Shown here in pieces: positions 2,884-16,650 of a stretch of DNA of 27,257 nucleotides. Each line of letters starts with the position of its first letter. Position 1 is the first letter of the stretch. Position numbers and translations under genes: made by a program. The stretch is from Propionibacteriaceae bacterium (GTDB lineage: Bacteria; Actinomycetota; Actinomycetes; Propionibacteriales; Propionibacteriaceae): positions 1-27,257 of the forward strand of contig JAITED010000130.1 in the NCBI GenBank assembly GCA_031282235.1, read 5' to 3'. A model generated the notes under the pieces. The model did no database searches, was not told where the DNA came from, and saw nothing but the letters and a program-made list of their open reading frames with translations.

Positions 2884-4529
2884 TGATTAAGCAACTGGGC
2901 ATCCTGCAACTCAAACTCACTTGGCGGGAACTGCATTCGTCTCGGCTCACCCTCATCGTTTCGCTACTGATGTATCTGGGGATAGTGGGCGGGGTGCTGC
3001 GGGCATCAATCGCGCTCGCTGACCTCTCTGATGCCTCCACAGCTTCGCTGGCGGCGATTACGGTGGCCGCTTTTGGGCTGCTCACGTTCTTATGGCCGGT
3101 TTCGATGGTGTTCGTGATGGGCAGCAACGAGATTCTTGACCCCGGGCGTTTCGCGCTCTACCCAATTAGCGGGCGCAAACTGCTGCCCGGCCTGCTCGCC
3201 GCAGGCTTTTTGGGGATGGGCGGGTTGTGTATGACGATTCTCTGGGTGGGTTATCAGATAGCTTGGTCTAGTGGCTCCGTAGCCGTGAGTGCGACCGCGC
3301 TGTTGGGGTACGCGCTGGGGTTCACGCTGTGCGTATTGTCGGGGCGTACCCTGTCGGCGCTGCTCACCAAGGTGTTCGCCAAACGCAAAGCGCGCGATGT
3401 GGGGATGGTGGGGTTGATGTTGTTCATCATCGGGCTGTCTTTTCTGGTGCAAATGCTGCCGATGACCATGGGCGACGGCGAGGGCGATATCGGTGTCAGT
3501 ATCAGTATCGAATCGCTGGCGAGTGGGTTGGGTGGCATCGCCGCTGTGATGAGTTGGACGCCGTTTGGCTGGCCATGGGCGGTTCCCGCCGCCGCTGCTG
3601 CTGGGAACTGGGGATTGGCGGCGCTGTTTGCACTCGGTACGCTCGCACTGTTGTGGGGTTTGGCTTGGGTGTGGCGGCGCGAGATTGAACGCGGGCTGGT
3701 CTCTCCGCTGGAGGTGGGCGGCACTGGGGAGCGTATCAAAGGCACGGGCTGGTACGACCGTTTCTTCCCGGCTGGCCCGGTGGGGTCAATCGCCAAGCGT
3801 TCCATGCGGTATTGGCGGCGGGACCCCAGACGCTTGATGGGGTTGATGTCGATGCTGCTGGTGCCGGTAATCTCCACCGTCAGCGTATTAGTAGGCATCA
3901 ACCAAGCCGGCGAGTCCATCGACGACCCGGTGGTAAGTATCGTAGTCAGCTATCTGCCGGTGCTATTCGCTTTCATGGCTGCCACCGCCACCATGTGGGA
4001 CATCTCATACGACGGCTCGGCGCTCGGCACCCAGATTGTCGCCGGAGTGGACGGGGTGACGGATAGGCGTGGCCGCGCTTGGGCGGCTTTGGCGATTTTT
4101 GTGCCGCTGCAACTGGTCTATCTGTTGGGAGTCTTTATTTACTTCGGAGTTTGGGAACAGTTCCCCAATGTGTTTGGGCTGAGCGTCGCTATTCTCTTGG
4201 GCGGTGTCGGTATCGGCTCTTGGGCGGGCGGCTATTGGCAGGCGGCGCAGCGTCCCGCTGGGCAGCTTACGTTTGGGAAGTCCAGCATGGTCGGCGGAGG
4301 AGCCACGTTCCTAGGTGCTTTAGTGGGGTTGCTCGCGCCGCTGGTTATCGTCATCCCCACCGTAGTCTGTGTGGTTTTTAGCTTCTGGCACCCTTGGCTC
4401 GCCGCCGTCGCGCTCCTAGTAGGTGTCGGTAGCGGCGCGCTGGTGTTGCACTTGGGCATAGTCCTCGGTGGCCGCCATTTAGATGCCACTTGGCCAGAAG
4501 TGCTGGAGCGAGTCACCTGGAAAGGTTAG
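2883..4529 (+). CDS. ABC-2-type exporter, large multi-pass permease
   Basis: Many hydrophobic segments in two halves separated by a basic loop ([11 protein letters not shown]). ATG 2883 overlaps the ATPase stop (TGATG), indicating translational coupling. Confidence 0.85.
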
Positions 4530-4546
4530 CTGCTAGATTAGTTGAC

Positions 4547-6373
4547 GTGAACAACAAACGCCCTCAGGACGTATTGCGCGAAATCTTTGGATACCACGAG
4601 TTTCGCGGGTTCCAAAGCGAAGTGATAACGCGGGTGTGTGCGGGTGGCGATGCCGTGGTTTTGATGCCCACCGGCGGCGGCAAATCGTTGTGTTATCAGA
4701 TACCGGCACTGCTGCGAGACGGCGTGGGGGTGGTGGTATCGCCGCTTATCGCGCTGATGCAAGACCAAGTGGATGCGCTGGCGCAGGTGGGCATAAAGGC
4801 CGGGTTCTTGAACTCCACTCAAACCAGGAGAGAACGCGCGGCGATGGAGTTGGCTTATCTGAATGGGGAGATTGACCTGCTGTATCTGTCCCCGGAGCGC
4901 TTAGTAATGCCGGAGACTCAGGAACTGTTACATCAGGGCAACGTGGCACTGTTCGCCATTGATGAGGCGCACTGCGTATCACAGTGGGGGCACGACTTTC
5001 GCCCCGAATATCTGCAACTCGATGTGTTGGCCGACGAGTGGCCGGACGTGCCGCGTATTGCACTCACTGCCACCGCCACGGTAGCCACTAGGGCAGAGAT
5101 TCGGGAACGGTTGCGCCTAGCGGACGCAGAAATGTTCGTAGCGTCGTTCAACCGCCCCAACATCCGCTACCGCATCGTCCCCAAAAGCTCGGAACTGTCG
5201 CAGTTGGTGGAGTTCATCCAAACGGAACACGCGGGGGAGTCCGGCATCGTATACGCGATGACCCGCAAGCGCACCGAGGACATAGCGGAGCGGCTGCGGA
5301 GCGAGGGTGTCACCGCGTTGCCGTATCACGCCGGGCTGTGCGCGCTGGAGCGCCGCGCCACCCAAGAGCGGTTCTTGCGCGAGGACGGTGTGGTGGTGGT
5401 CGCCACTATCGCGTTTGGGATGGGGATTGATAAACCGGATGTACGTTTCGTAGCTCACCTAGATTTGCCCAAGTCAATCGAGGGTTACTATCAGGAGACC
5501 GGGCGGGCGGGGCGTGATGGTGAACCCGCCGACGCTTGGATGGCGTATGGCCTTTCGGATGTGGTGGGGATGCGCCGGATCATCGCGGGTTCGCCAGATG
5601 AGCGCAACCAGACCCGATTGTTGAACGCGATGCTCTCGCTGTGTGAAACCGGGGAGTGCCGCCGGGTTGAGATGCTGCACTATTTCGACGAAGACACTGA
5701 ACCCTGCGGCAACTGTGACACCTGCCTGCAACCCCCGGTGCTGCTTGATGCCACCGTCAACGCTCAGAAACTGTTGTCCACCGCCGTCCGGTTGGAGCAG
5801 CGCTCGCAGCACTTCGGGGCGGGGCAGATTATCGACATTCTGCGCGGGCACAGCACCGCAAAAACGACGCAGTGGCACCACGAAACCCTATCCACTTGGG
5901 GCATCGGAGCAGATTTAGGCGATACCCAATGGCGGGTGGTGGTGCGCAGGCTGCTGGCCGACGGTGATTTAAGCGTGGGAGCGCACGATACGCTCCGGGT
6001 CACGCCCTCCGGTTGGGAGGTGCTGCGCGGGAATCGTAGCGTACAGATTCGTGAGAGCGTCATGGAATCGAAGCCTCGGGCCGCAACGGGAAAGTCCCGT
6101 TCCCAAGCTAAAGATGCGCTCGCCGCTGTCCCCGCCGCAGACCGGAAGCTGTTCACAGCGCTGCGGGCTTGGCGCGCCGAAGTCTCCAAAACTGACGGTG
6201 TGCCAGCGTATGTGGTGTTCCACGACGCCACCCTGCTAGAAATCGCTGGGCTGCGCCCCACGTCGCTAACCGAACTGGCCGCCGTAAACGGGGTGGGACA
6301 GACCAAACTGGAGCGCTACGGTGCAGCCGTACTGGAGATAGTAGCCACCCAATCCTTATACGAAACAACCTAA
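4547..6373 (+). CDS. recQ: ATP-dependent DNA helicase RecQ (helicase + RQC + one HRDC)
   Basis: [41 protein letters not shown], Zn motif CRR..YF...C.NCD.C, HRDC LRAWR...[16 protein letters not shown] 4547 chosen as start because the longer ORF overlaps the permease. Confidence 0.95.
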
Positions 6374-6392
6374 CTTTCCCTCTTTCCCCTCG

Positions 6393-6407
6393 TCTTGGTT
6401 AGCGAGC
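6393..6407 (+). repeat. Left copy of 15-bp direct repeat TCTTGGTTAGCGAGC flanking the rpn gene
   Basis: Exact match to 7463-7477. Confidence 0.9.
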
Positions 6408-6430
6408 GCAGTCACAGCATCGTGAATCCG

Positions 6431-6457
6431 AGGTGTGGGGTTCAATCCCGCATCTTT
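6431..6457 (+). terminator. Hairpin downstream of recQ (possible weak intrinsic terminator)
   Basis: AGGTGTGGG / CCCGCATCT forms a 9-bp RNA stem (two G-U pairs) with a 7-nt loop and only a short T run. Confidence 0.4.
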
Positions 6458-6625
6458 GGCGCTGACACCGTGAATCATCTTCAAAAGTTATCCACAGATT
6501 GGGATTGGGTATGGATTAAACCTGTTCAAACCTGTATAAGCTCGAACATCAACGCACGCTGTAGACACACCGCGCACGCTACAACTACAAACCCAGCAAC
6601 GCCCAGAAAAGGGAACCCAACAAAC

Positions 6626-7441
6626 ATGCCTTTATTAAAATATCGACTCACCAATGATGTGCTATTCAAAATACTGTTTTCCCAAGTCCCAGACTTCCTT
6701 AAACGACTCGTCGCCGGAGTGCTAAACATTAGATTTGAAGACATTACCCAATTCGAGGTGGAACCAGCAGAAATACCACCAGAAGCAATCAACGATAAGT
6801 TCCTGCACCTAGACATCAATATGGTGCTGAACGGGCAACTAATCAATTTAGAGATACAGGTTGCCAACCAAAAAGACTACTTAGAGCGTTCCCTATACAA
6901 TTGGGCAACAATTTTCGCTAACGCACTGCCCGCCGGAGAAAAATACGCAGAACTACCCCGCGTAATAGTAATCAGCATCCTCGACTTCAAACAGTTCAAA
7001 AGCAAGGATTATCACTCGGTGTTTCAGGTGTGGGAAAACTCTCGTGGAGAACTTTTAACAGACCGGTTAGCGTTACATTACTTAGAGCTTAAAAAACTTC
7101 CCAAAGGCACAAATAGAGCAAGTGAATTAGAATTGCTGCTAAGCGCGTTTCGTGCTAGAACAGTCGAAGATTTGGAATCAATGCGAGAATCAGCGGTTCC
7201 GAACATGAACGAGGTGATAGACATGTACTGGAAAGTAACAGCAGACACCAAATTCCGCGAAATAGCACGCCTAAAAGAGAGAGCCCGCCACGACGAAGCC
7301 TCTGCTTTAAGCCAAGCAGAACAAAAAGGTGAACAAAGAGCCGACAAGAAGTGGAAACGCTTAACCGCCCAAAAAGATGCCGAGATTGCTAAACTAACCG
7401 CCGAAATCGCCCGCCTACAAGCCACAATCAGTCCCGCCTAA
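6626..7441 (+). CDS. Rpn family recombination-promoting nuclease / putative transposase (PD-(D/E)XK nuclease fold)
   Basis: N-terminal NDVLFKILF, catalytic LDI...INLEIQ, ERSLY, VIVISILDF, YLELKK, and a C-terminal coiled-coil tail. ATG 6626 follows AAAAGGGA. Three sampled 60-nt lines gave 37-47% GC, lower than the flanks. Confidence 0.9.
   Translation: MPLLKYRLTNDVLFKILFSQVPDFLKRLVAGVLNIRFEDITQFEVEPAEIPPEAINDKFLHLDINMVLNGQLINLEIQVANQKDYLERSLYNWATIFANALPAGEKYAELPRVIVISILDFKQFKSKDYHSVFQVWENSRGELLTDRLALHYLELKKLPKGTNRASELELLLSAFRARTVEDLESMRESAVPNMNEVIDMYWKVTADTKFREIARLKERARHDEASALSQAEQKGEQRADKKWKRLTAQKDAEIAKLTAEIARLQATISPA
7223..7441 (+). CDS. Putative intragenic small protein (RpnS-like antitoxin, 72 aa), in frame within rpn
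   Basis: SD GAGGTGA (7211-7217) lies 5 nt before an in-frame ATG at 7223, which starts the helical/coiled-coil C-terminal region. Confidence 0.55.
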   Translation: MYWKVTADTKFREIARLKERARHDEASALSQAEQKGEQRADKKWKRLTAQKDAEIAKLTAEIARLQATISPA

Positions 7442-7462
7442 CCATCCCACAGGCTTACCATA

Positions 7463-7477
7463 TCTTGGTTAGCGAGC
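7463..7477 (+). repeat. Right copy of 15-bp direct repeat TCTTGGTTAGCGAGC
   Basis: Exact match to 6393-6407. Confidence 0.9.
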
Positions 7478-7723
7478 AGTGAGGGTAGCGCACTTTTCCG
7501 TCGTGCTGCGAGATGGGGGCATAGGGTGGGGAGTGTGAAAAGTTTTGGGAAAGAGGATTTTGGGAGGAAGGATTTTTCTATAAACGGGATAACTCCGAAT
7601 AACTTTGCAAGGAATGCCACATAATTTGCAGTGACATGCGATGAGATGCACTGCATGTGGGGCGCATGATGCGTCCGAAGCCGTATCGTTTCAGATATCT
7701 TGCTGTTTTCGCTTGATATTTCC

Positions 7724-7752
7724 TTGACAACTGCTCGGGTACTGATTACCAT
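7724..7752 (+). promoter_or_regulatory. Sigma70-type promoter for the lipoprotein/ABC cassette
   Basis: TTGACA (7724-7729), 17-nt spacer, TACCAT (7747-7752). Confidence 0.7.
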
Positions 7753-7782
7753 GCGGGTAATAGAACAGCGGAGGGTGGATGT

Positions 7783-7804
7783 GGGGGGTAGTTATACCCC
7801 CCCC
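7783..7804. repeat. G/C-tract inverted repeat in the predicted 5' UTR
   Basis: GGGGGGTA-GTTA-TACCCCCC(CC): 8-bp perfect arms, with a C8 tract at 7797-7804. Confidence 0.7.
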
Positions 7805-7891
7805 GAAGTTACGACTCTTGCACGGTGTGTCGGGGCGCTCGTCCCTTTCGGGTGGTGTTTCGGCCTTAATTCAAAGGAAAGAGGCAGATAA

Positions 7892-7948
7892 ATGTTTAAG
7901 ATGCATCGTGCTTACTGCGAATGTGTGAGTTCCCCATGCGCGGCCTGA
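7892..7948 (+). CDS. Possible 18-aa upstream ORF MFKMHRAYCECVSSPCAA
   Basis: Purine-rich SD AAAGGAAAGAGG (7873-7884) precedes ATG 7892. The ORF overlaps the lipoprotein start out of frame. No homology evidence. Confidence 0.35.
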   Translation: MFKMHRAYCECVSSPCAA

Positions 7949-8661
7949 GGGTTCTAACCTCTGCGTTGCTGGGCGCGTTGTTGTTGGGTGCCTGCGGGGT
8001 ATCCGGCGATGGCGCGCCCACGCCGTCTGATACGGCTACGGTAACGGACGAGTCTGGTTATGAGCAGTTCATGGAGGCAACGAAAGGGCTATTCGAACGC
8101 GCTTGGGAGAGGTCGCAGGCTGGTGAATATAAGCTGCTGTTTCCGGGACCGGAGATGCCGTTTCCTGAGACGGAGATTGTGCGGTTTGTTACTCTTTCTG
8201 AAAAGCCGGAGGCGTGGCGGGCTTGTATGGTGGAGGCTGGTTGGGATGTTTCGGTTAGCTCTGATGGTGGGATGACACCGCCTAGAGACCTTCCATATGA
8301 GCAGATGGATGCTTATCAGATGGCAAGTTACATCTGTCTGGCATCGTATCCGATAGACGCTAGGACGCAGCAACATAGTGCTGAGCAAGTCAAAATTCGG
8401 TATGACTACTTGGTTGAGACTCAGAAGCCGTGTTTGGAAAGCTATGGTATTCAAGTCTCTGAGCCGCCGTCGTGGGAGACGTATCGGGCAGGTTGGGTTT
8501 CTGATGGTCACGGTGGTCTAAGCCCCGACGGCGCGGGTAACTGGTCTCCGTATGAGTTTGTGCATGTGAGTGAGGATTTGTGGAACACGTTGAATGAAAA
8601 CTGTCCGCAGTCTCCGCCGGATGAGTTAATGTGGCCTGATGGTGTGCCCAATGGTGATTAA
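7936..8661 (+). CDS. Uncharacterised lipoprotein with two Cys-paired helical repeats
   Basis: Signal peptide with lipobox LLGA-C (Cys20 from ATG 7936; alternative start 7921). Repeats ACMVEAGWDV...C and PCLESYGIQV...C. Confidence 0.8.
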   Translation: MRGLRVLTSALLGALLLGACGVSGDGAPTPSDTATVTDESGYEQFMEATKGLFERAWERSQAGEYKLLFPGPEMPFPETEIVRFVTLSEKPEAWRACMVEAGWDVSVSSDGGMTPPRDLPYEQMDAYQMASYICLASYPIDARTQQHSAEQVKIRYDYLVETQKPCLESYGIQVSEPPSWETYRAGWVSDGHGGLSPDGAGNWSPYEFVHVSEDLWNTLNENCPQSPPDELMWPDGVPNGD

Positions 8662-9766
8662 ACGCGAAAGTTTGGCGGTGTTGGAACCGGGCAAAACGGA
8701 TAAGCCTAGGGTTATGGGAGTGCTTCGGCGGCGGGTGTCGCTGCTTATCAATGTGGGTTTAGTGTTGGTGGCGTTGGGCGCTGGTTGGTGGGCGGGGCGG
8801 GTTACGTTGACTGGCTCTAATGAGGGTGGAGTGGAGGCTCCGCAGCAGGTTGTGGTTGAGGTTACGCAGGGGAGTGTTGGGCGTACCTTGGGGGTGGGGG
8901 TTACGGTGCGGCAACCGGTGGAGGTGGTGGCTACTAATACGCTTTACGGCATGGTGACTTTTGCTAGGGCGGCTGGCGAGGTGAATAACGGGGATGTGGT
9001 GTTTCAGGTGGCAGGGGCGCCGGTGCGCGTGGTAGCGGGAACGGTGCCGTTTTATCGGGGGTTGTCGTCTGGGGCGCGGGGCGCGGATGTGGCGCAGCTC
9101 AATGAAGCGTTGGTGGCGTTGGGGTATTTAGCTTCGGGTAATAATGGGGATTATTTTGGTACGGCTACGTATAACGCGGTACGGGCTTGGCAGCAGGCTT
9201 TGGGGGTGGAGCGCACTGGGGCGGTGCCGTTGGGGGAGGTGTTGGCGGTGCCGCAGTTGCCTACGGTTATCCGGTTGGGGGAGGCTATCCGTACTGGGCA
9301 GTTGGTGAGCGGTGGCGAGGCGGCGGTGTTGGCTAGCAGCGGGGCGCAGGAGTTTGCTTTGGTGCTTTCTTCCGACCAATCCAACACCATCACTAACGAT
9401 GTTGCGCTGCGGGTGTTTTTTGAGGATTTGGTGTGGGAGGCGCGTTCTGTTGGTTCACGGATGGACGCTAGTGGTTATACGGCGCGCATTCTGGCGGCTG
9501 TCGATGGTGGGGCGGTGTGCGGGGCAGATTGCGCCAGACTGCCTGCTGACGAGCAGTTATCGCTGCGGGCTGAGGCGATAGTTATCCCGGAGGTGAGTGG
9601 GGCTACGCTGCCCGTTGGCGCGGTGCGTACCGCAGCGGATGGGGGAACGTATGTACGGTTGGCTGACGGCACCGAGCGTGACATAAAAGTTTTGGGTTCC
9701 GGGCAGGGGATTGCTGTGGTGTCAGGTTTGGAAGTTGGCGAGCAAGTCATAGTTTATGGGGAGTGA
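8651..9766 (+). CDS. Peptidoglycan-binding membrane-fusion/adaptor-like protein (YknX-like)
   Basis: N-terminal TM helix, a V..GSVGRTL adaptor segment, a PG_binding_1 motif (LSSGARGADVAQLNEALVALGY...YFGTATYNAVRAWQ) and a C-terminal LP..AV...DG...V...GL.VGE.V segment. Confidence 0.82.
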   Translation: MVIKRESLAVLEPGKTDKPRVMGVLRRRVSLLINVGLVLVALGAGWWAGRVTLTGSNEGGVEAPQQVVVEVTQGSVGRTLGVGVTVRQPVEVVATNTLYGMVTFARAAGEVNNGDVVFQVAGAPVRVVAGTVPFYRGLSSGARGADVAQLNEALVALGYLASGNNGDYFGTATYNAVRAWQQALGVERTGAVPLGEVLAVPQLPTVIRLGEAIRTGQLVSGGEAAVLASSGAQEFALVLSSDQSNTITNDVALRVFFEDLVWEARSVGSRMDASGYTARILAAVDGGAVCGADCARLPADEQLSLRAEAIVIPEVSGATLPVGAVRTAADGGTYVRLADGTERDIKVLGSGQGIAVVSGLEVGEQVIVYGE

Positions 9767-9772
9767 GCGGTT

Positions 9773-10408
9773 GTGTTGGCGGTCACCGAGCTGACGTTCT
9801 CTTATCGCCCCGGCGGTGAGGAGTTATTTGGCGCGTTGACTAGGGAGTTTTTGCCTGGCGCGGTTACGGCGCTCACTGGAGCATCGGGGCGAGGTAAATC
9901 CACGCTGTTGTATCTGTTGGGGTTGCTGTTGCGTCCGCGCACTGGGCAGGTGTTGATTGATGGGGTGGTTGCGTCGTCTCTGTCGGATGAGGAGTGTTCT
10001 GGGCTGCGGGCGACTCGTATTGGTTTCGTTTTTCAGGATGCCGCACTTGACCCGAGCCGTACCATTTTGGATGCCGTGGTGGAGCCAGCGTTGTACGCTG
10101 GAGCGACCATAACCGCAGTACGCCCCCGCGCTTTGCAGTTGTTGGATGAGTTTGGATTGGCACACCGCGCCACCCATCGCCCGGGGCAGATTTCTGGTGG
10201 GCAAGCGCAGCGTGTCGCCTTATGCCGTGCGTTAATCACCAACCCCAGTATCATTTTGGCTGATGAACCCACTGGTAACTTGGACATGGACAGTGCCGAG
10301 ATGGTGTTGAGCGCGCTAGTGGCTGCTAGCACGCAGGGGCGTACCGTAATCATCGCCACCCACAATGCATACGTGGTGGAACGCGCAGCTGATGTGGTGC
10401 AGTTATGA
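9773..10408 (+). CDS. ABC transporter ATP-binding subunit (LolD/MacB family)
   Basis: GASGRGKST, IGFVFQD, ISGGQAQRVALCRAL, ILADEPTGNLD, ATHN. Confidence 0.92.
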   Translation: MLAVTELTFSYRPGGEELFGALTREFLPGAVTALTGASGRGKSTLLYLLGLLLRPRTGQVLIDGVVASSLSDEECSGLRATRIGFVFQDAALDPSRTILDAVVEPALYAGATITAVRPRALQLLDEFGLAHRATHRPGQISGGQAQRVALCRALITNPSIILADEPTGNLDMDSAEMVLSALVAASTQGRTVIIATHNAYVVERAADVVQL

Positions 10409-11493
10409 AACCGTTGATGTTGCTAAGAGAGGCTTGGGTTTCCACTTTTACCCGGGTGGTGCCTGCGGTGATGGTGGCGGTGTTGTGCGCGTCCATGTGT
10501 GCTACCACGTTGCTCACGGTGGGGCGTACCGCTAGCGCTGAGGCTGATGTGATGGCTCGTATGGAGCAGGCGGGTTCGTTGGAACTCGTTATCGGCGATA
10601 ACCGTAACGCTGGGCTGTTGAGCCCTACGGTGGTAAACAATGTGGCGGCGTTAGATGTGGTGGAGCGTGCGGTGGGGTTGGGTTCTGCAGTTGATGTGCG
10701 CTCCGGCACTCTCGCTGCTGGTGGTAATCGGGTGCCTGCTTGGGGGGTGGTGGGGGATATTACTGCGGTGGCTACCCTCATCGGGGGACGGTTCCCGTTG
10801 CCGGGGGAGGCGTTGGTTTCGCAGGCTGCTTTAGAGAAACTCGGCCACGATTATCCCACTGGGTATGTGACGCAGGGGAGTGTGGATTATCCGATTGTGG
10901 GGGTTTTTGTGGCGCGTGAACCGTTCAGTGATTTAGCTGCCGGTGTGGTGTTTGTTGCGGAGGTTGGCACTCCTGCGCATACGTTGCACGTCATCACGCA
11001 CACTGCGGCTGCTGCGGTGCTCACGCAGCGGTTGGTGTTGGCTATCGTGAGCGCTCCTAAACTGGAGGATTTAACTGTGCAATCCGCTACCGCATTAGCG
11101 GCGCTACAAGGCGAGATAGCGGGCGATTTCGGGTTGTTCGGTCGGCAATTGTTGCTGTTGGTTTTGGGGGCTGGTGCCCTCCTCACCGGTGTAGTGGTGT
11201 TGGCAGATGTGTTGTTGCGCCGCGCCGATTTGGGCAGGCGGCGCGCTTTGGGGGCTACCCGCCGTATTCTCATCGCGCTAGTGATGCTCCGCGCTCTAAT
11301 CGCCGCTTTGTTCGGAGTGGTGCTGGGTTCAGCAGCGTCCCTAATCGTACTAACGGTTTGGGATGTCAGTGTGCCTACTGTGTTCGTCATCGCCACCGTC
11401 GTCCTGACGTTACTAGCCGCTCTAGCCGCCGCTCTCGGCCCTGCCGTAAAAGCCGCCACCCTTGACCCAGTTACCGTATTGCGCACCCCTTAA
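10405..11493 (+). CDS. MacB/FtsX-type ABC permease
   Basis: N-terminal TM, extracytoplasmic domain, then three C-terminal TMs with RRALGA and AATLDPVTVLR motifs. ATGA overlap with the ATPase stop. Confidence 0.88.
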   Translation: MKPLMLLREAWVSTFTRVVPAVMVAVLCASMCATTLLTVGRTASAEADVMARMEQAGSLELVIGDNRNAGLLSPTVVNNVAALDVVERAVGLGSAVDVRSGTLAAGGNRVPAWGVVGDITAVATLIGGRFPLPGEALVSQAALEKLGHDYPTGYVTQGSVDYPIVGVFVAREPFSDLAAGVVFVAEVGTPAHTLHVITHTAAAAVLTQRLVLAIVSAPKLEDLTVQSATALAALQGEIAGDFGLFGRQLLLLVLGAGALLTGVVVLADVLLRRADLGRRRALGATRRILIALVMLRALIAALFGVVLGSAASLIVLTVWDVSVPTVFVIATVVLTLLAALAAALGPAVKAATLDPVTVLRTP

Positions 11494-11522
11494 GTAATAC
11501 GCACGCTCTGAGCCGCGCGGGT

Positions 11523-11552
11523 TTGGCGTTCGGGGTGGGCTTCTAGTAGAGT
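11523..11552 (+). promoter_or_regulatory. Putative promoter of the rplJL operon
   Basis: TTGGCG, 18-nt spacer, TAGAGT, immediately upstream of the L10 leader. Confidence 0.45.
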
Positions 11553-11555
11553 CAG

Positions 11556-11680
11556 TGACCGCCAAAGACCGCCGGTAGTCGTAAGACTTTAAAGCCTTTA
11601 AGGGGCACCTGCGCAGGTACATGTGGTAGCTGCTTTTGAGTAGCGTTTTAGCCCCGTGCGCTTGCGCCGGGGTTTTCTTA
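11556..11680 (+). promoter_or_regulatory. L10 leader (ribosomal-protein autoregulatory RNA) with attenuator-like hairpin
   Basis: CCAAAGACCGCCGGT...CCTGCGCAGG core typical of actinobacterial rplJ leaders, followed by the hairpin GCCCCG...CGGGGT and a T-rich tail (11650-11680). Confidence 0.75.
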
Positions 11681-11731
11681 TTTGTTTTATACCGGGACGG
11701 GCGGCGGCACCAAGATAAGTTAGGAGACCAA

Positions 11732-12397
11732 ATGGCGAGGCCCGACAAGGTCACCGCAGTCGAGTCGCTGACGAACGAGTTTTCGTCCAGCGCTGCGGCG
11801 GTGTTGACCGAGTATCGCGGTCTGAGCGTGAAGCACCTGAAAGAACTACGCAGGTCGCTAGGCTCAGACGCCAGCTATGCCGTTGCGAAAAACACCCTGA
11901 CCAAGCTCGCTGCCGAGAACGCTGGCATTGCGGGGCTGGACGATATTCTCGTCGGCCCCACCGCCATCGCGTTCATCAAAGGCGATGTGGCTACGGTCGC
12001 TAAAGGGCTACGCGATTTCGCAAAGGCTAACCCACTTCTGGTCATCAAAGGCGGCGTCATGGACGGGAAAGTCCTAGACGCTGACACCGTAAAGAAACTC
12101 GCCGACCTAGAGTCGCGCGAAGTGCTGCTCTCCAAGCTGGCCGGTGCCATGAAAGGCACCGCTCAGAAAGCCGTATCGCTGTTCGCCGCTCCGCTTACCC
12201 AAGCGGCGCAGTTGTTCGGCGCACTGCAGGAGAAACGCGCTGCCGGTGAAACACCAGATGCGACAGCGGAAGCTGTCACCCCAAGTGCTGACGCAACTGA
12301 TACGTCTGCACCCGATAACGCCGCCCCTGCGGCATCCGAGGCGTCCGATGTGGCCTCGGCTCCCCAAGACGTAGCTGTTGCTGCATCGAATGAATGA
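11732..12397 (+). CDS. rplJ: 50S ribosomal protein L10 (with acidic Ala-rich C-terminal tail)
   Basis: MARPDK..AV, EYRGL.V..L..LRR, V.KNTL, GPTAIAF, LVIKGG..DG, LADL.SREVLL. SD AGGAG. Confidence 0.96.
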
Positions 12398-12415
12398 GTG
12401 AAGGAAAAGAAAACT

Positions 12416-12811
12416 ATGGCTAAAAAGCTCACCACTGACGAGCTGCTTGAAGCTTTCAAGGAAATGACGCTGATTGAACTCTCCGAGTTCGTGAAGCTGT
12501 TTGAGGAAACCTTTGACGTGAAGGCTGCCGCTCCGGTGGCCGTCGCCGCCGCAGCTGCGCCTGCCGCCGCTGAGGAATCCGCCGAAGAAGAATCTTCCAA
12601 CGAGGTTGATGTCGTGCTAGAGGACGGCGGTGACAAGAAGATTCAGGTCATCAAGGTGGTACGCGAACTGGTTTCGGGTCTCGGCCTCAAAGAGGCGAAA
12701 GACCTCGTAGAAGCCGCTCCGAAGATTGTCATCGAACGCGCCACCAAAGAGGCTGCCGCCAAAGCCAAAGAGGCTCTGGAAGCCGCTGGCGCCAAAGTCA
12801 CCCTCAAGTAA
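12416..12811 (+). CDS. rplL: 50S ribosomal protein L7/L12
   Basis: [63 protein letters not shown]. Confidence 0.97.
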
Positions 12812-12846
12812 GGGCGAAACATCTCCTATTGGGAGAGATACGTACG

Positions 12847-12910
12847 GGAAGCCCCGCTGCAAAGCGGGGCTTCCTGCGTATAAAAGAGCAGGGCTTCCTG
12901 CGTATAAAAG
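12847..12910 (+). terminator. 12-bp hairpin after rplL with tandemly duplicated 3' arm
   Basis: GGAAGCCCCGCT-GCAA-AGCGGGGCTTCC. GGGCTTCCTGCGTATAAAAG occurs at both 12867-12886 and 12891-12910. No U-tract. Confidence 0.55.
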
Positions 12911-13061
12911 CGTGACTGAACGCGCAAATCATTTGATACCTACCAGTGGCGCGGTATGATTCACTGTGACGGCACCCGTTAGGGCTTTTAACATGATTAC
13001 CGAAGTCGGGAGCCGAGATGCTGGCAGCGTTGCTAGGAGTGTCTGGGTTTGTGCGCGCGAG

Positions 13062-13090
13062 TTGCGCTCTGCGACTCACTGCGGTACTAT
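13062..13090 (+). promoter_or_regulatory. Putative rpoBC promoter
   Basis: TTGCGC, 17-nt spacer, TACTAT. Confidence 0.55.
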
Positions 13091-13179
13091 GGGCAGTTGT
13101 ACGTCTTGACCTTTCTGCGCCTTTTGGCGTGGGAGTGAAAGGTACGCCTTAGCCGCAAAGGCATTTGGAAGGATATATC

Positions 13180-16650
<3,471 letters not shown>

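Follow-up and report, generated by a model that had tools for sequence, protein, structure and literature searches.

Nuclease genes framed by the repeats on which they act are already known from the RAYT and Ssn systems. In RAYT/REP-REPIN systems, a nuclease- or transposase-type gene is framed by genome-specific palindromic repeats, termed repetitive extragenic palindromic (REP) sequences (PMC3116915, PMC3337134), and the genes for Ssn, GIY-YIG nucleases that modulate natural transformation, often carry their cognate NTS/SRM repeat on both sides (PMC11893778). Among Rpn nucleases, RpnA-E of Escherichia coli (YhgA-like, PF04754) promote RecA-independent recombination and have no defined element ends, and it has been suggested that rpnC was inserted independently twice at the same position (PMC5350276). 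RpnL and RpnS are encoded by toxin-antitoxin defence genes (PMC10400941). Here, we describe an rpn gene that lies directly behind recQ on contig JAITED010000130.1 of a Propionibacteriaceae bacterium (GCA_031282235.1; the whole stretch analyzed, 27,257 nt, is called the window) and is bracketed by two direct copies of a 15-nt sequence. As judged by sequence comparison, both 15-mers are same-orientation members of a dispersed family resembling REP sequences and MITEs (miniature inverted-repeat transposable elements); the short box variant that they represent is called the T2 box. Our favored reading, to which we assign a probability of roughly 45%, is that an rpn cassette of ~1 kb was placed at a T2 box by recombination between boxes or by duplication of a box.

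Like a RAYT gene, the rpn gene of the window is a single gene flanked by a family that is also dispersed intergenically, mostly just past genes. In contrast, RAYT is an HUH Y1 enzyme, whereas the window gene encodes a PD-(D/E)XK nuclease of the Rpn family. No RAYT gene (Y1_Tnp, PF01797) was matched in eight genomes of the genus, all of them incomplete metagenome-assembled genomes (MAGs), and RAYT was thus set aside as the mobilizer of the repeats. Furthermore, the boxes here are direct and not inverted, several diverged paralogs are present, and the hairpin core of the family also occurs in relatives without rpn. The likeness to Ssn and its NTS repeat lies in the repeat on either side of the nuclease gene and in an upstream signal that some rpn paralogs share with ComEA- and Tad-type genes. 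The two systems differ in nuclease fold and in the standing of repeat cleavage, which is demonstrated for Ssn and a candidate activity only for Rpn; the NTS is also commoner, the exact T2 box being far rarer (~9 copies). With RpnA-E, RpnL, and RpnS, the window protein shares its superfamily and NCBI family name, a sporadic distribution, multiple paralogs, and horizontal spread, although RpnA-E belong to PF04754 and the window Rpn to the sister family PF12784.

Rpn/YhgA/PDDEXK_2 proteins are among the commonest bacterial "putative transposase" annotations and spread horizontally. Their genes have been invoked for the mobility of islands and of cif genes, without defined ends or an insertion mechanism (PMC5350276, PMC12445526, PMC13439711). 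No paper linking Rpn/PDDEXK_2 genes to flanking repeats was found in the literature searched, and neither "direct repeat" nor "inverted repeat" occurs in the text of PMC5350276. A reproducible bracket would give testable substrates, namely, the T2 box, the MITE hairpin, and the predicted empty-site and circle junctions. The bracket described here has the same box at two paralogs and parallels in unrelated genomes (MITE-rpn-MITE arrangements and a 250-nt host duplication). If the boxes were mere bystanders, the locus would represent ordinary REP-type gathering around foreign genes.

The features of the locus are as follows (T1 and T2 denote two box variants of the repeat family, defined below):

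4547 to 6373, forward strand: recQ helicase gene (Pfam DEAD, Helicase_C, RecQ_Zn_bind, RQC, and HRDC)
6393 to 6407, forward strand: left repeat copy, a T2 box with core TCTTGGYTAGCG, with the usual C/T-rich leader ending in CG in front
6404 to 6481, forward strand: left half of a ~225-nt palindromic MITE, truncated (positions 41-118 of the profile; nhmmer E 1.3e-11)
6486 to 6497, forward strand: AGTTATCCACAG box, remnant of a two-box promoter/operator-like module (homology with locus L023 begins at 6484)
6626 to 7441, forward strand: rpn gene, 271 aa, PD-(D/E)XK nuclease of the Rpn/PDDEXK_2 family (PF12784, TIGR01784)
7463 to 7477, forward strand: right repeat copy, a T2 box 21 nt past the rpn stop, with a noncanonical leader
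7478 to 7512, forward strand: rest of a canonical T2 unit, namely, AGTGAGGGTAGCGCA, a short C/T spacer, and the T1-type box CCGTCGTGCTGCGAG (alignment with contig C210)

The sequence TCTTGGTTAGCGAGC occurs exactly at 6393-6407 and 7463-7477. A previous reading of this DNA, made from the sequence alone (the sequence-only reading), had singled out the pair, and searches of the window and of the 1.52-Mb, 220-contig assembly bore it out. The total is two copies, with no third copy in the assembly and no further match in the window when up to two mismatches were allowed (0.06 expected); the repeat is nonrandom and, as a 15-mer, confined to this pair. Also upheld was the assignment of both copies to a CC-TAA-C module at the ends of recQ and rpn. 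CCTAAC lies at 6369-6374 and 7437-7442, its internal TAA is the stop codon of recQ (6371-6373) or rpn (7439-7441), and spacers of 18 nt (left) and 20 nt (right) lead to the repeat, which starts 19-21 nt past the stop. After the repeat, the left copy continues with GC-AGT and the right copy with AGT, and the identity of the two copies ends abruptly at both edges. The suggested pairing of CTAAC with GTTAG, on the other hand, was absent from the predicted fold, and the local folds at the two copies were no more stable than those of shuffled sequences (z -1.4 and -0.9).

An independent assembly of the source run (Logan) covers both repeat copies and the stretch at 99.95% identity; thus, the bracket is not an assembly artifact. 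As a baseline, we scanned from 400 nt upstream to 200 nt downstream of the open reading frames (ORFs) of this genome. Of 887 gene-like ORFs, 4 (0.5%) had an exact direct repeat of 15 nt or more in their flanks, and 1.6% had one of 12 nt or more. The GC content between the repeats is 0.459, compared with 0.59 in both the window and the genome. In agreement with the sequence-only reading, there is no terminal inverted repeat at the ends of 6393-7477, no tRNA or tmRNA in the window (ARAGORN), and no tyrosine recombinase on the rpn contig, the three of the assembly being located on other contigs.

The locus resembles an integron cassette in that a single-gene unit of ~1 kb has a direct repeat past each stop codon, and (A/G)CCTAAC fits the RYYYAAC of attC sites. 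It differs in that GTTAGCG does not fit GTTRRRY, only 39-41 nt are spanned rather than ~55-140 nt, and the repeats are members of a REP/MITE-like family. Given this misfit, the short span, the lack of a stable fold, and the lack of an integrase on the contig, the attC reading was rejected.

The left copy overlaps a dispersed repeat through its 3' part, a feature that the sequence-only reading had overlooked, as positions 6400-6481 matched contigs C7, C155, C120, C208, and others by blastn. In an alignment of full copies, the MITE ends are formed by the T1 box, a hairpin (GTCATGCTGCGCG / CGCAGCATGAC), together with CAGTCGCAGCATCCAGGA, and a full-length copy folds as a single long hairpin (-127.8 kcal/mol, z -7.6). 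The MITE profile retrieved 32 loci in the assembly. Short units precede many of these MITEs; their components are a C-rich leader, a box, and a segment of the GTGAGCG type. On contigs C38, C199, C208, and C210, such units start with a rarer variant of the box, CCG-TCTTGGCTAGCG (the T2 box). There are ~9 T2 boxes in the genome, 5 of them beside rpn ORFs, and the T2 box alone is not palindromic.

Both copies of the window fit this scheme. On the left, a T2 box with a canonical leader is fused straight to the MITE body, the truncated half of which abuts the box. On the right, a T2 box is followed by the canonical unit remainder, so that the unit spans 7463-7512; local alignment of 7442-7560 with the solo unit on C210 scored 20, compared with 8.4 +/- 1.5 in shuffles (z 8). 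These arrangements show that both copies are family members. The alternative offered by the sequence-only reading, a dispersed REP-type repeat, was therefore right as to what the sequences are (E 1.3e-11 on the left, z 8 on the right). The two copies are identical at 15 of 15 positions and both carry T7 and A13, which are found in no other box; other boxes match them at 10-13 of 15.

The center of the MITE at 6443-6455 contains a tRNA T-arm-like sequence, GGGGTTCAATCCC, which is conserved in only some family members. An origin of this T-loop-like segment (GGTTCAATCC) from a tRNA or tmRNA was rejected, as ARAGORN gave no prediction and Rfam gave no match in the window even at E values up to 10.

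The boxes and MITEs are linked to rpn genes across this genome. The assembly contains five matches to PF12784 and further fragments, at 40-48% identity to the window protein, and the only other paralog with both flanks assembled (on C132) is flanked by the same 12-nt core; the paralogs on C148, C141, C134, and C176 run into contig ends. At C132, the core is found 219 nt ahead of the gene start and 25 nt past the stop, compared with 233 nt and 21 nt for the window gene; the two proteins are 48% identical. Both complete paralogs (2/2) are thus bracketed, compared with the 1.6% of ORFs that have a flanking direct repeat of at least 12 nt. Four of the eight exact 12-mers lie within 250 nt of these two complete rpn ORFs (binomial P 2e-10), and a MITE match was present within 300 nt at 4 of 8 assembled rpn flanks versus 0.9% of random windows (P 4e-7). 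The inner junctions at C132 are like those of the window, the right one reading CCA(TA)-box and the left one box-(AG)CGCAGT. A further paralog, on C134, has a box variant with two mismatches, a canonical unit, and a MITE start ~60 nt past its stop. The exact box is not carried by the paralogs on C148 and C141 or by loci L023 and L119, and the rpn loci of the genus relatives G002 and G004 have no boxes. With respect to the flanks of other rpn copies, to which the sequence-only reading had looked for locus-specific repeats, C132 is indeed bracketed too, but by a shared motif, and C148 and C141 are without the exact box.

The flanks of the bracket indicate how it may have formed. The left outer flank, one box, and the right outer flank together make a normal T2 unit, and the inner junctions are the odd ones, as expected if ~1.07 kb had been inserted there. 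We infer that the bracket arose by insertion or recombination. The cassette would comprise a promoter remnant and the ORF (6484 to ~7455), with the MITE half attached on the left, and this low-GC segment would sit inside what would otherwise be one T2 unit behind recQ. Either a circular or linear piece with one box may have recombined with a chromosomal box, or the cassette may have been inserted with duplication of the box. Joining could have occurred by short homology without RecA, as Rpn nucleases reportedly promote (PMC5350276), and Rpn itself may act on the box. Termite-gut homologues that are ~50% identical are found across phyla, which fits horizontal arrival of rpn.

Insertion behind recQ with duplication of the target had been proposed from the sequence alone. 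The bracket at C132 and the ordinary unit made by the outer flanks and one box speak for an insertion, but the target would not be random or locus specific, since TCTTGGYTAGCG is common to several loci and belongs to a dispersed family. The repeat is more likely a junction footprint of repeat-guided capture or translocation than the fixed-length target duplication of a transposase. Classical transposition would have an rpn-encoded transposase move a 1,055-bp element to a random target with a 15-bp duplication, and it would account for the exact 15-nt direct repeat, the sharp edges, and the low-GC single-gene unit. However, the same motif recurs at C132, where it spans 12 nt rather than 15 nt, and terminal inverted repeats are absent. 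Near-identical copies with the same ends are also missing, as the paralogs of this genome are 40-48% identical and the 81% identical paralog shares only 6484 to ~7455, and both copies belong to a dispersed family. We consider transposition of this kind highly improbable.

On a different account of the bracket, two independent family members may have settled behind recQ and rpn and been made alike by local copying or gene conversion 1 kb apart. REP/MITE elements would then simply settle past stop codons and in foreign, AT-richer DNA, and the repeat would be uninformative on the arrival of rpn. Consistent with this account, both repeats lie 19-21 nt past a stop codon, and both lead into arrangements known from the family, a box with MITE body for the left copy and a box with unit for the right copy. 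Tens of copies of the hairpin core are also present in the genus relatives G003, devoid of rpn, and G004, with only an rpn fragment; unrelated boxes reach 14/15 identity; and the unit held in common with the closest paralog leaves out both repeats. The rarity of T2 boxes (~9, with 5 beside rpn ORFs), the two derived bases and sharp identity edges of the window pair, the same geometry at C132, and the lack of a canonical leader at the right copy all argue otherwise. We regard independent settlement as the less probable course, although with an appreciable chance of being correct.

Several observations weigh against the cassette reading. Boxes of the family agree with one another at 13-14 of 15 positions even where their loci are unrelated; thus, the 15/15 identity of the window pair is just one step above background. 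Low GC, which had been taken as a mark of the unit and does hold between the repeats, runs on (0.497) to ~7920, ~440 nt past the right copy, and the drop therefore sets no boundary to the unit. L023, a locus found in a JGI termite-gut sample as well as in the source run, carries the closest paralog (81% amino acid identity). Its alignment with the window is limited to 6484 to ~7455 and takes in neither repeat copy. This locus is without a T2 box and has a repeat array in the opposite orientation upstream, and its downstream flank is not significantly similar to that of the window (z -0.9); homology of the two right flanks was rejected on this basis. Its orthologue on C91 is a remnant with internal deletions, so that the loss there was decay in place and not clean excision. 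The outer flanks at C132 are not canonical unit sequence, and placement at a preexisting box fits that locus less well. The paralogs of this genome are only 40-48% identical, which argues against a recent burst of movement. Finally, most genomes with multiple paralogs share only ~5-100 nt upstream plus the ORF; the bracket is thus recurrent but not universal.

In place of the MITE half of the window, L023 has the two-box promoter module. Compared with L023:3900-5020, the C91 remnant (C91:15800-16065, L109) has undergone two internal deletions, with the upstream box, a middle part of ~110 nt, and the downstream flank remaining. The first deletion junction shows a short CGCTG overlap.

The distribution of the repeats among relatives separates the hairpin core from the larger elements. 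Tens of copies of the core are found in G003 (no rpn match), G004 (rpn fragment only), and G055, which indicates that the family cannot be regarded simply as an rpn product. A search that covered 7 genus relatives and 39 further genomes of the bacterial family found the full MITE in no genome but this one (G000), and of the 5 genus genomes tested, only G000 showed T2 boxes in a repeat context. The exact 12-mer TCTTGGYTAGCG has 8 occurrences in G000 (none for the reversed-pattern control) and 0-3 in each of four genus relatives, there only in apparent coding sequence. Among the genus genomes searched, the full MITE and the contextual T2 box were thus found in the rpn-rich G000 alone, a single lineage, and the hairpin core occurs without rpn.

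The rpn relatives in other genomes provide a wider comparison. The window stretch itself was found in one run only, a termite-gut metagenome, and its RecQ relatives are labeled as Propionibacteriaceae; the genome is a termite-gut MAG of this bacterial family. The 80 nearest rpn relative loci (42-53% amino acid identity) come nearly all from termite-gut MAGs of many phyla, a distribution that points to exchange of the rpn family within the termite-gut community. Relatives at ~45-53% amino acid identity (L140-L219) are found in Bacillota, Spirochaetota, Synergistota, Acidobacteriota, Coriobacteriales, and Adiutrix. Within the same flank limits as above, 7 of 72 rpn loci had exact direct repeats of 14 nt or more, versus 0.2% of cross-locus pairs, and blastn detected direct flank similarity at 10 of 70 rpn loci versus 0 of 205 cross pairs. 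In the recQ control, 4 of 67 loci had weak direct matches, all of them shorter than 80 nt. Repeats of only 14-27 nt in the flanks of other rpn loci were accordingly discarded as a signal, being no better than this control. Flanking direct repeats of at least 80 nt, in contrast, were present at 7 of 70 rpn loci, compared with 0 of 67 recQ controls and 0 of 205 cross pairs; the seven loci belong to five genomes, one of them being a tandem gene pair.

The bracketed units elsewhere measure ~0.9-1.06 kb less one repeat copy. In a Treponema MAG, every intact rpn paralog (three in number, 89-94% identical) is framed by two direct copies of a palindromic MITE of 190 nt, and the duplicated unit extends from outer MITE end to outer MITE end. 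In a Clostridia MAG (L161), a 250-nt direct repeat with 97% identity (1210-1459 and 2480-2729) brackets rpn. This repeat has only two copies in the genome and holds the first 129 nt of the minus-strand spoIIID together with its upstream region; thus, it is a duplication of host sequence. A locus-specific repeat pair of 146 nt is present in a Lachnospiraceae MAG (L211). The L161 rpn unit is 1,020 nt long.

Translocatable units of the IS26 type and composite units bounded by MITEs offer a further comparison, in that cargo lies between direct copies of a dispersed element and can be moved by recombination with another copy; the Treponema MITE-rpn-MITE arrangement resembles them. They differ from the case described here in that no transposase was identified for the repeats and the flanks of the window share only 15 nt. 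The Treponema MITE (L196, L199, L206, and L220-L237; genome G063) is ~190 nt long with ends CCCCCGCCGCGCGTGAG ... CTCACGCGCGGCGGGGG and is present in at least 40 copies of ~90% identity, with three alternative extensions on the right-hand side and no target duplication visible. A search of 30 relatives did not find it, and thus no presence/absence correlation between MITE and rpn is possible.

A third explanation, compatible with the cassette reading, is that the boxes are functional sites of the nuclease or of its regulator at gene ends, with the dispersed boxes and MITEs as further targets. The same motif on both sides of two paralogs that are 48% identical in protein would be expected on this view, as would the finding that, among the genomes searched, the full MITE and contextual T2 boxes occur only in the rpn-rich G000. 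The three intact Treponema paralogs, each between species-specific MITE copies, and the published precedent of Ssn and its NTS (PMC11893778) agree with it as well. However, C148, C141, L023, and L119 are without the exact box, most related loci elsewhere are without a flanking repeat, and the Treponema paralogs are recent copies of one unit and hence count as one event. Such a role for the boxes seems to us quite unlikely. A more general proposal would make Rpn/PDDEXK_2 proteins the cognate enzymes of host-specific palindromic repeats. They would cut boxes, spread or maintain the repeats, and allow a cassette of ~1 kb to enter or leave, leaving direct repeats of 12-250 nt, and some copies in this genome would be expressed with DNA-uptake genes. 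We consider this proposal unlikely, if somewhat less so than the purely functional role.

No empty site was encountered in the sequences searched, which included no near-identical strain and from which records of the window's own genome, or of one very close to it, may be missing. The exact RecQ protein is encoded by no contig searched, and the left-junction 25-mer was not found in metagenome contigs, the RecQ relatives of which are at most 61% identical. At 75% identity, the best RecQ of the protein collection is encoded on a contig with a different gene order; the genus genomes share only recQ with the window stretch. No excision or circle joint was seen in the low-depth (~7) Logan contigs of one termite-gut run, the only ones at hand. 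In the nearest relative (72% nucleotide identity in recQ), recQ is inverted between the gene that precedes it in the window and rplJ-rplL-rpoB.

The inversion is in place, as seen when window positions 4323-15299 are compared with L238 (and with contig C24 of G007). Between recQ and rplJ, the window has an extra 5.2 kb (6374-11560) that contains rpn and a four-gene block of the ABC/FtsX type, encoding an unknown protein, a PG_binding_1 protein, an ABC ATPase, and an FtsX permease. The rpn/repeat region is located at a rearrangement breakpoint.

The recQ frame is open from 4490, and the called product has 608 aa (P0121). Rpn matches PF12784 with an E value of 1.4e-36 (126.8 bits; cutoff, 27.4) over positions 2-229 of 229 and TIGR01784 with 90.6 bits (cutoff, 52.1). 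D63, E76, and Q78 are invariant in an alignment of 15 relatives, and this D...ExQ core is presumably equivalent to the catalytic residues D63/E82/Q84 of RpnA (PMC5350276). Going back from the ATG at 6626, the rpn frame contains no stop for 77 codons, as far as a TTG within the left repeat copy (6395-6625). Homologues begin at the ATG; thus, the extension is probably due to chance.

The promoter/operator-like module upstream of rpn consists, in its full form, of GTTATCCACAG, ~20-30 nt, GTTATCCACAATTG, ~8 nt, GTTGGCCGGTTT, ~12 nt, and GTAGAG. It has at least 9 occurrences in the genome (C4, two sites on C20, C87, C137, C146, C196, C148, and C141; L120-L126). These lie 20-100 nt upstream of genes for ComEA-like, ParA/CpaE-like, DUF4244, SAF-domain (CpaB-like), and M23 peptidase proteins and of two rpn paralogs. 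One module box is retained at the window rpn and two are retained at C132, L023, and L119. This pattern suggests that rpn genes may be wired into a DNA-uptake/pilus regulon. The sequence TTATCCACA is the DnaA-box consensus and occurs 46 times, compared with ~12 expected.

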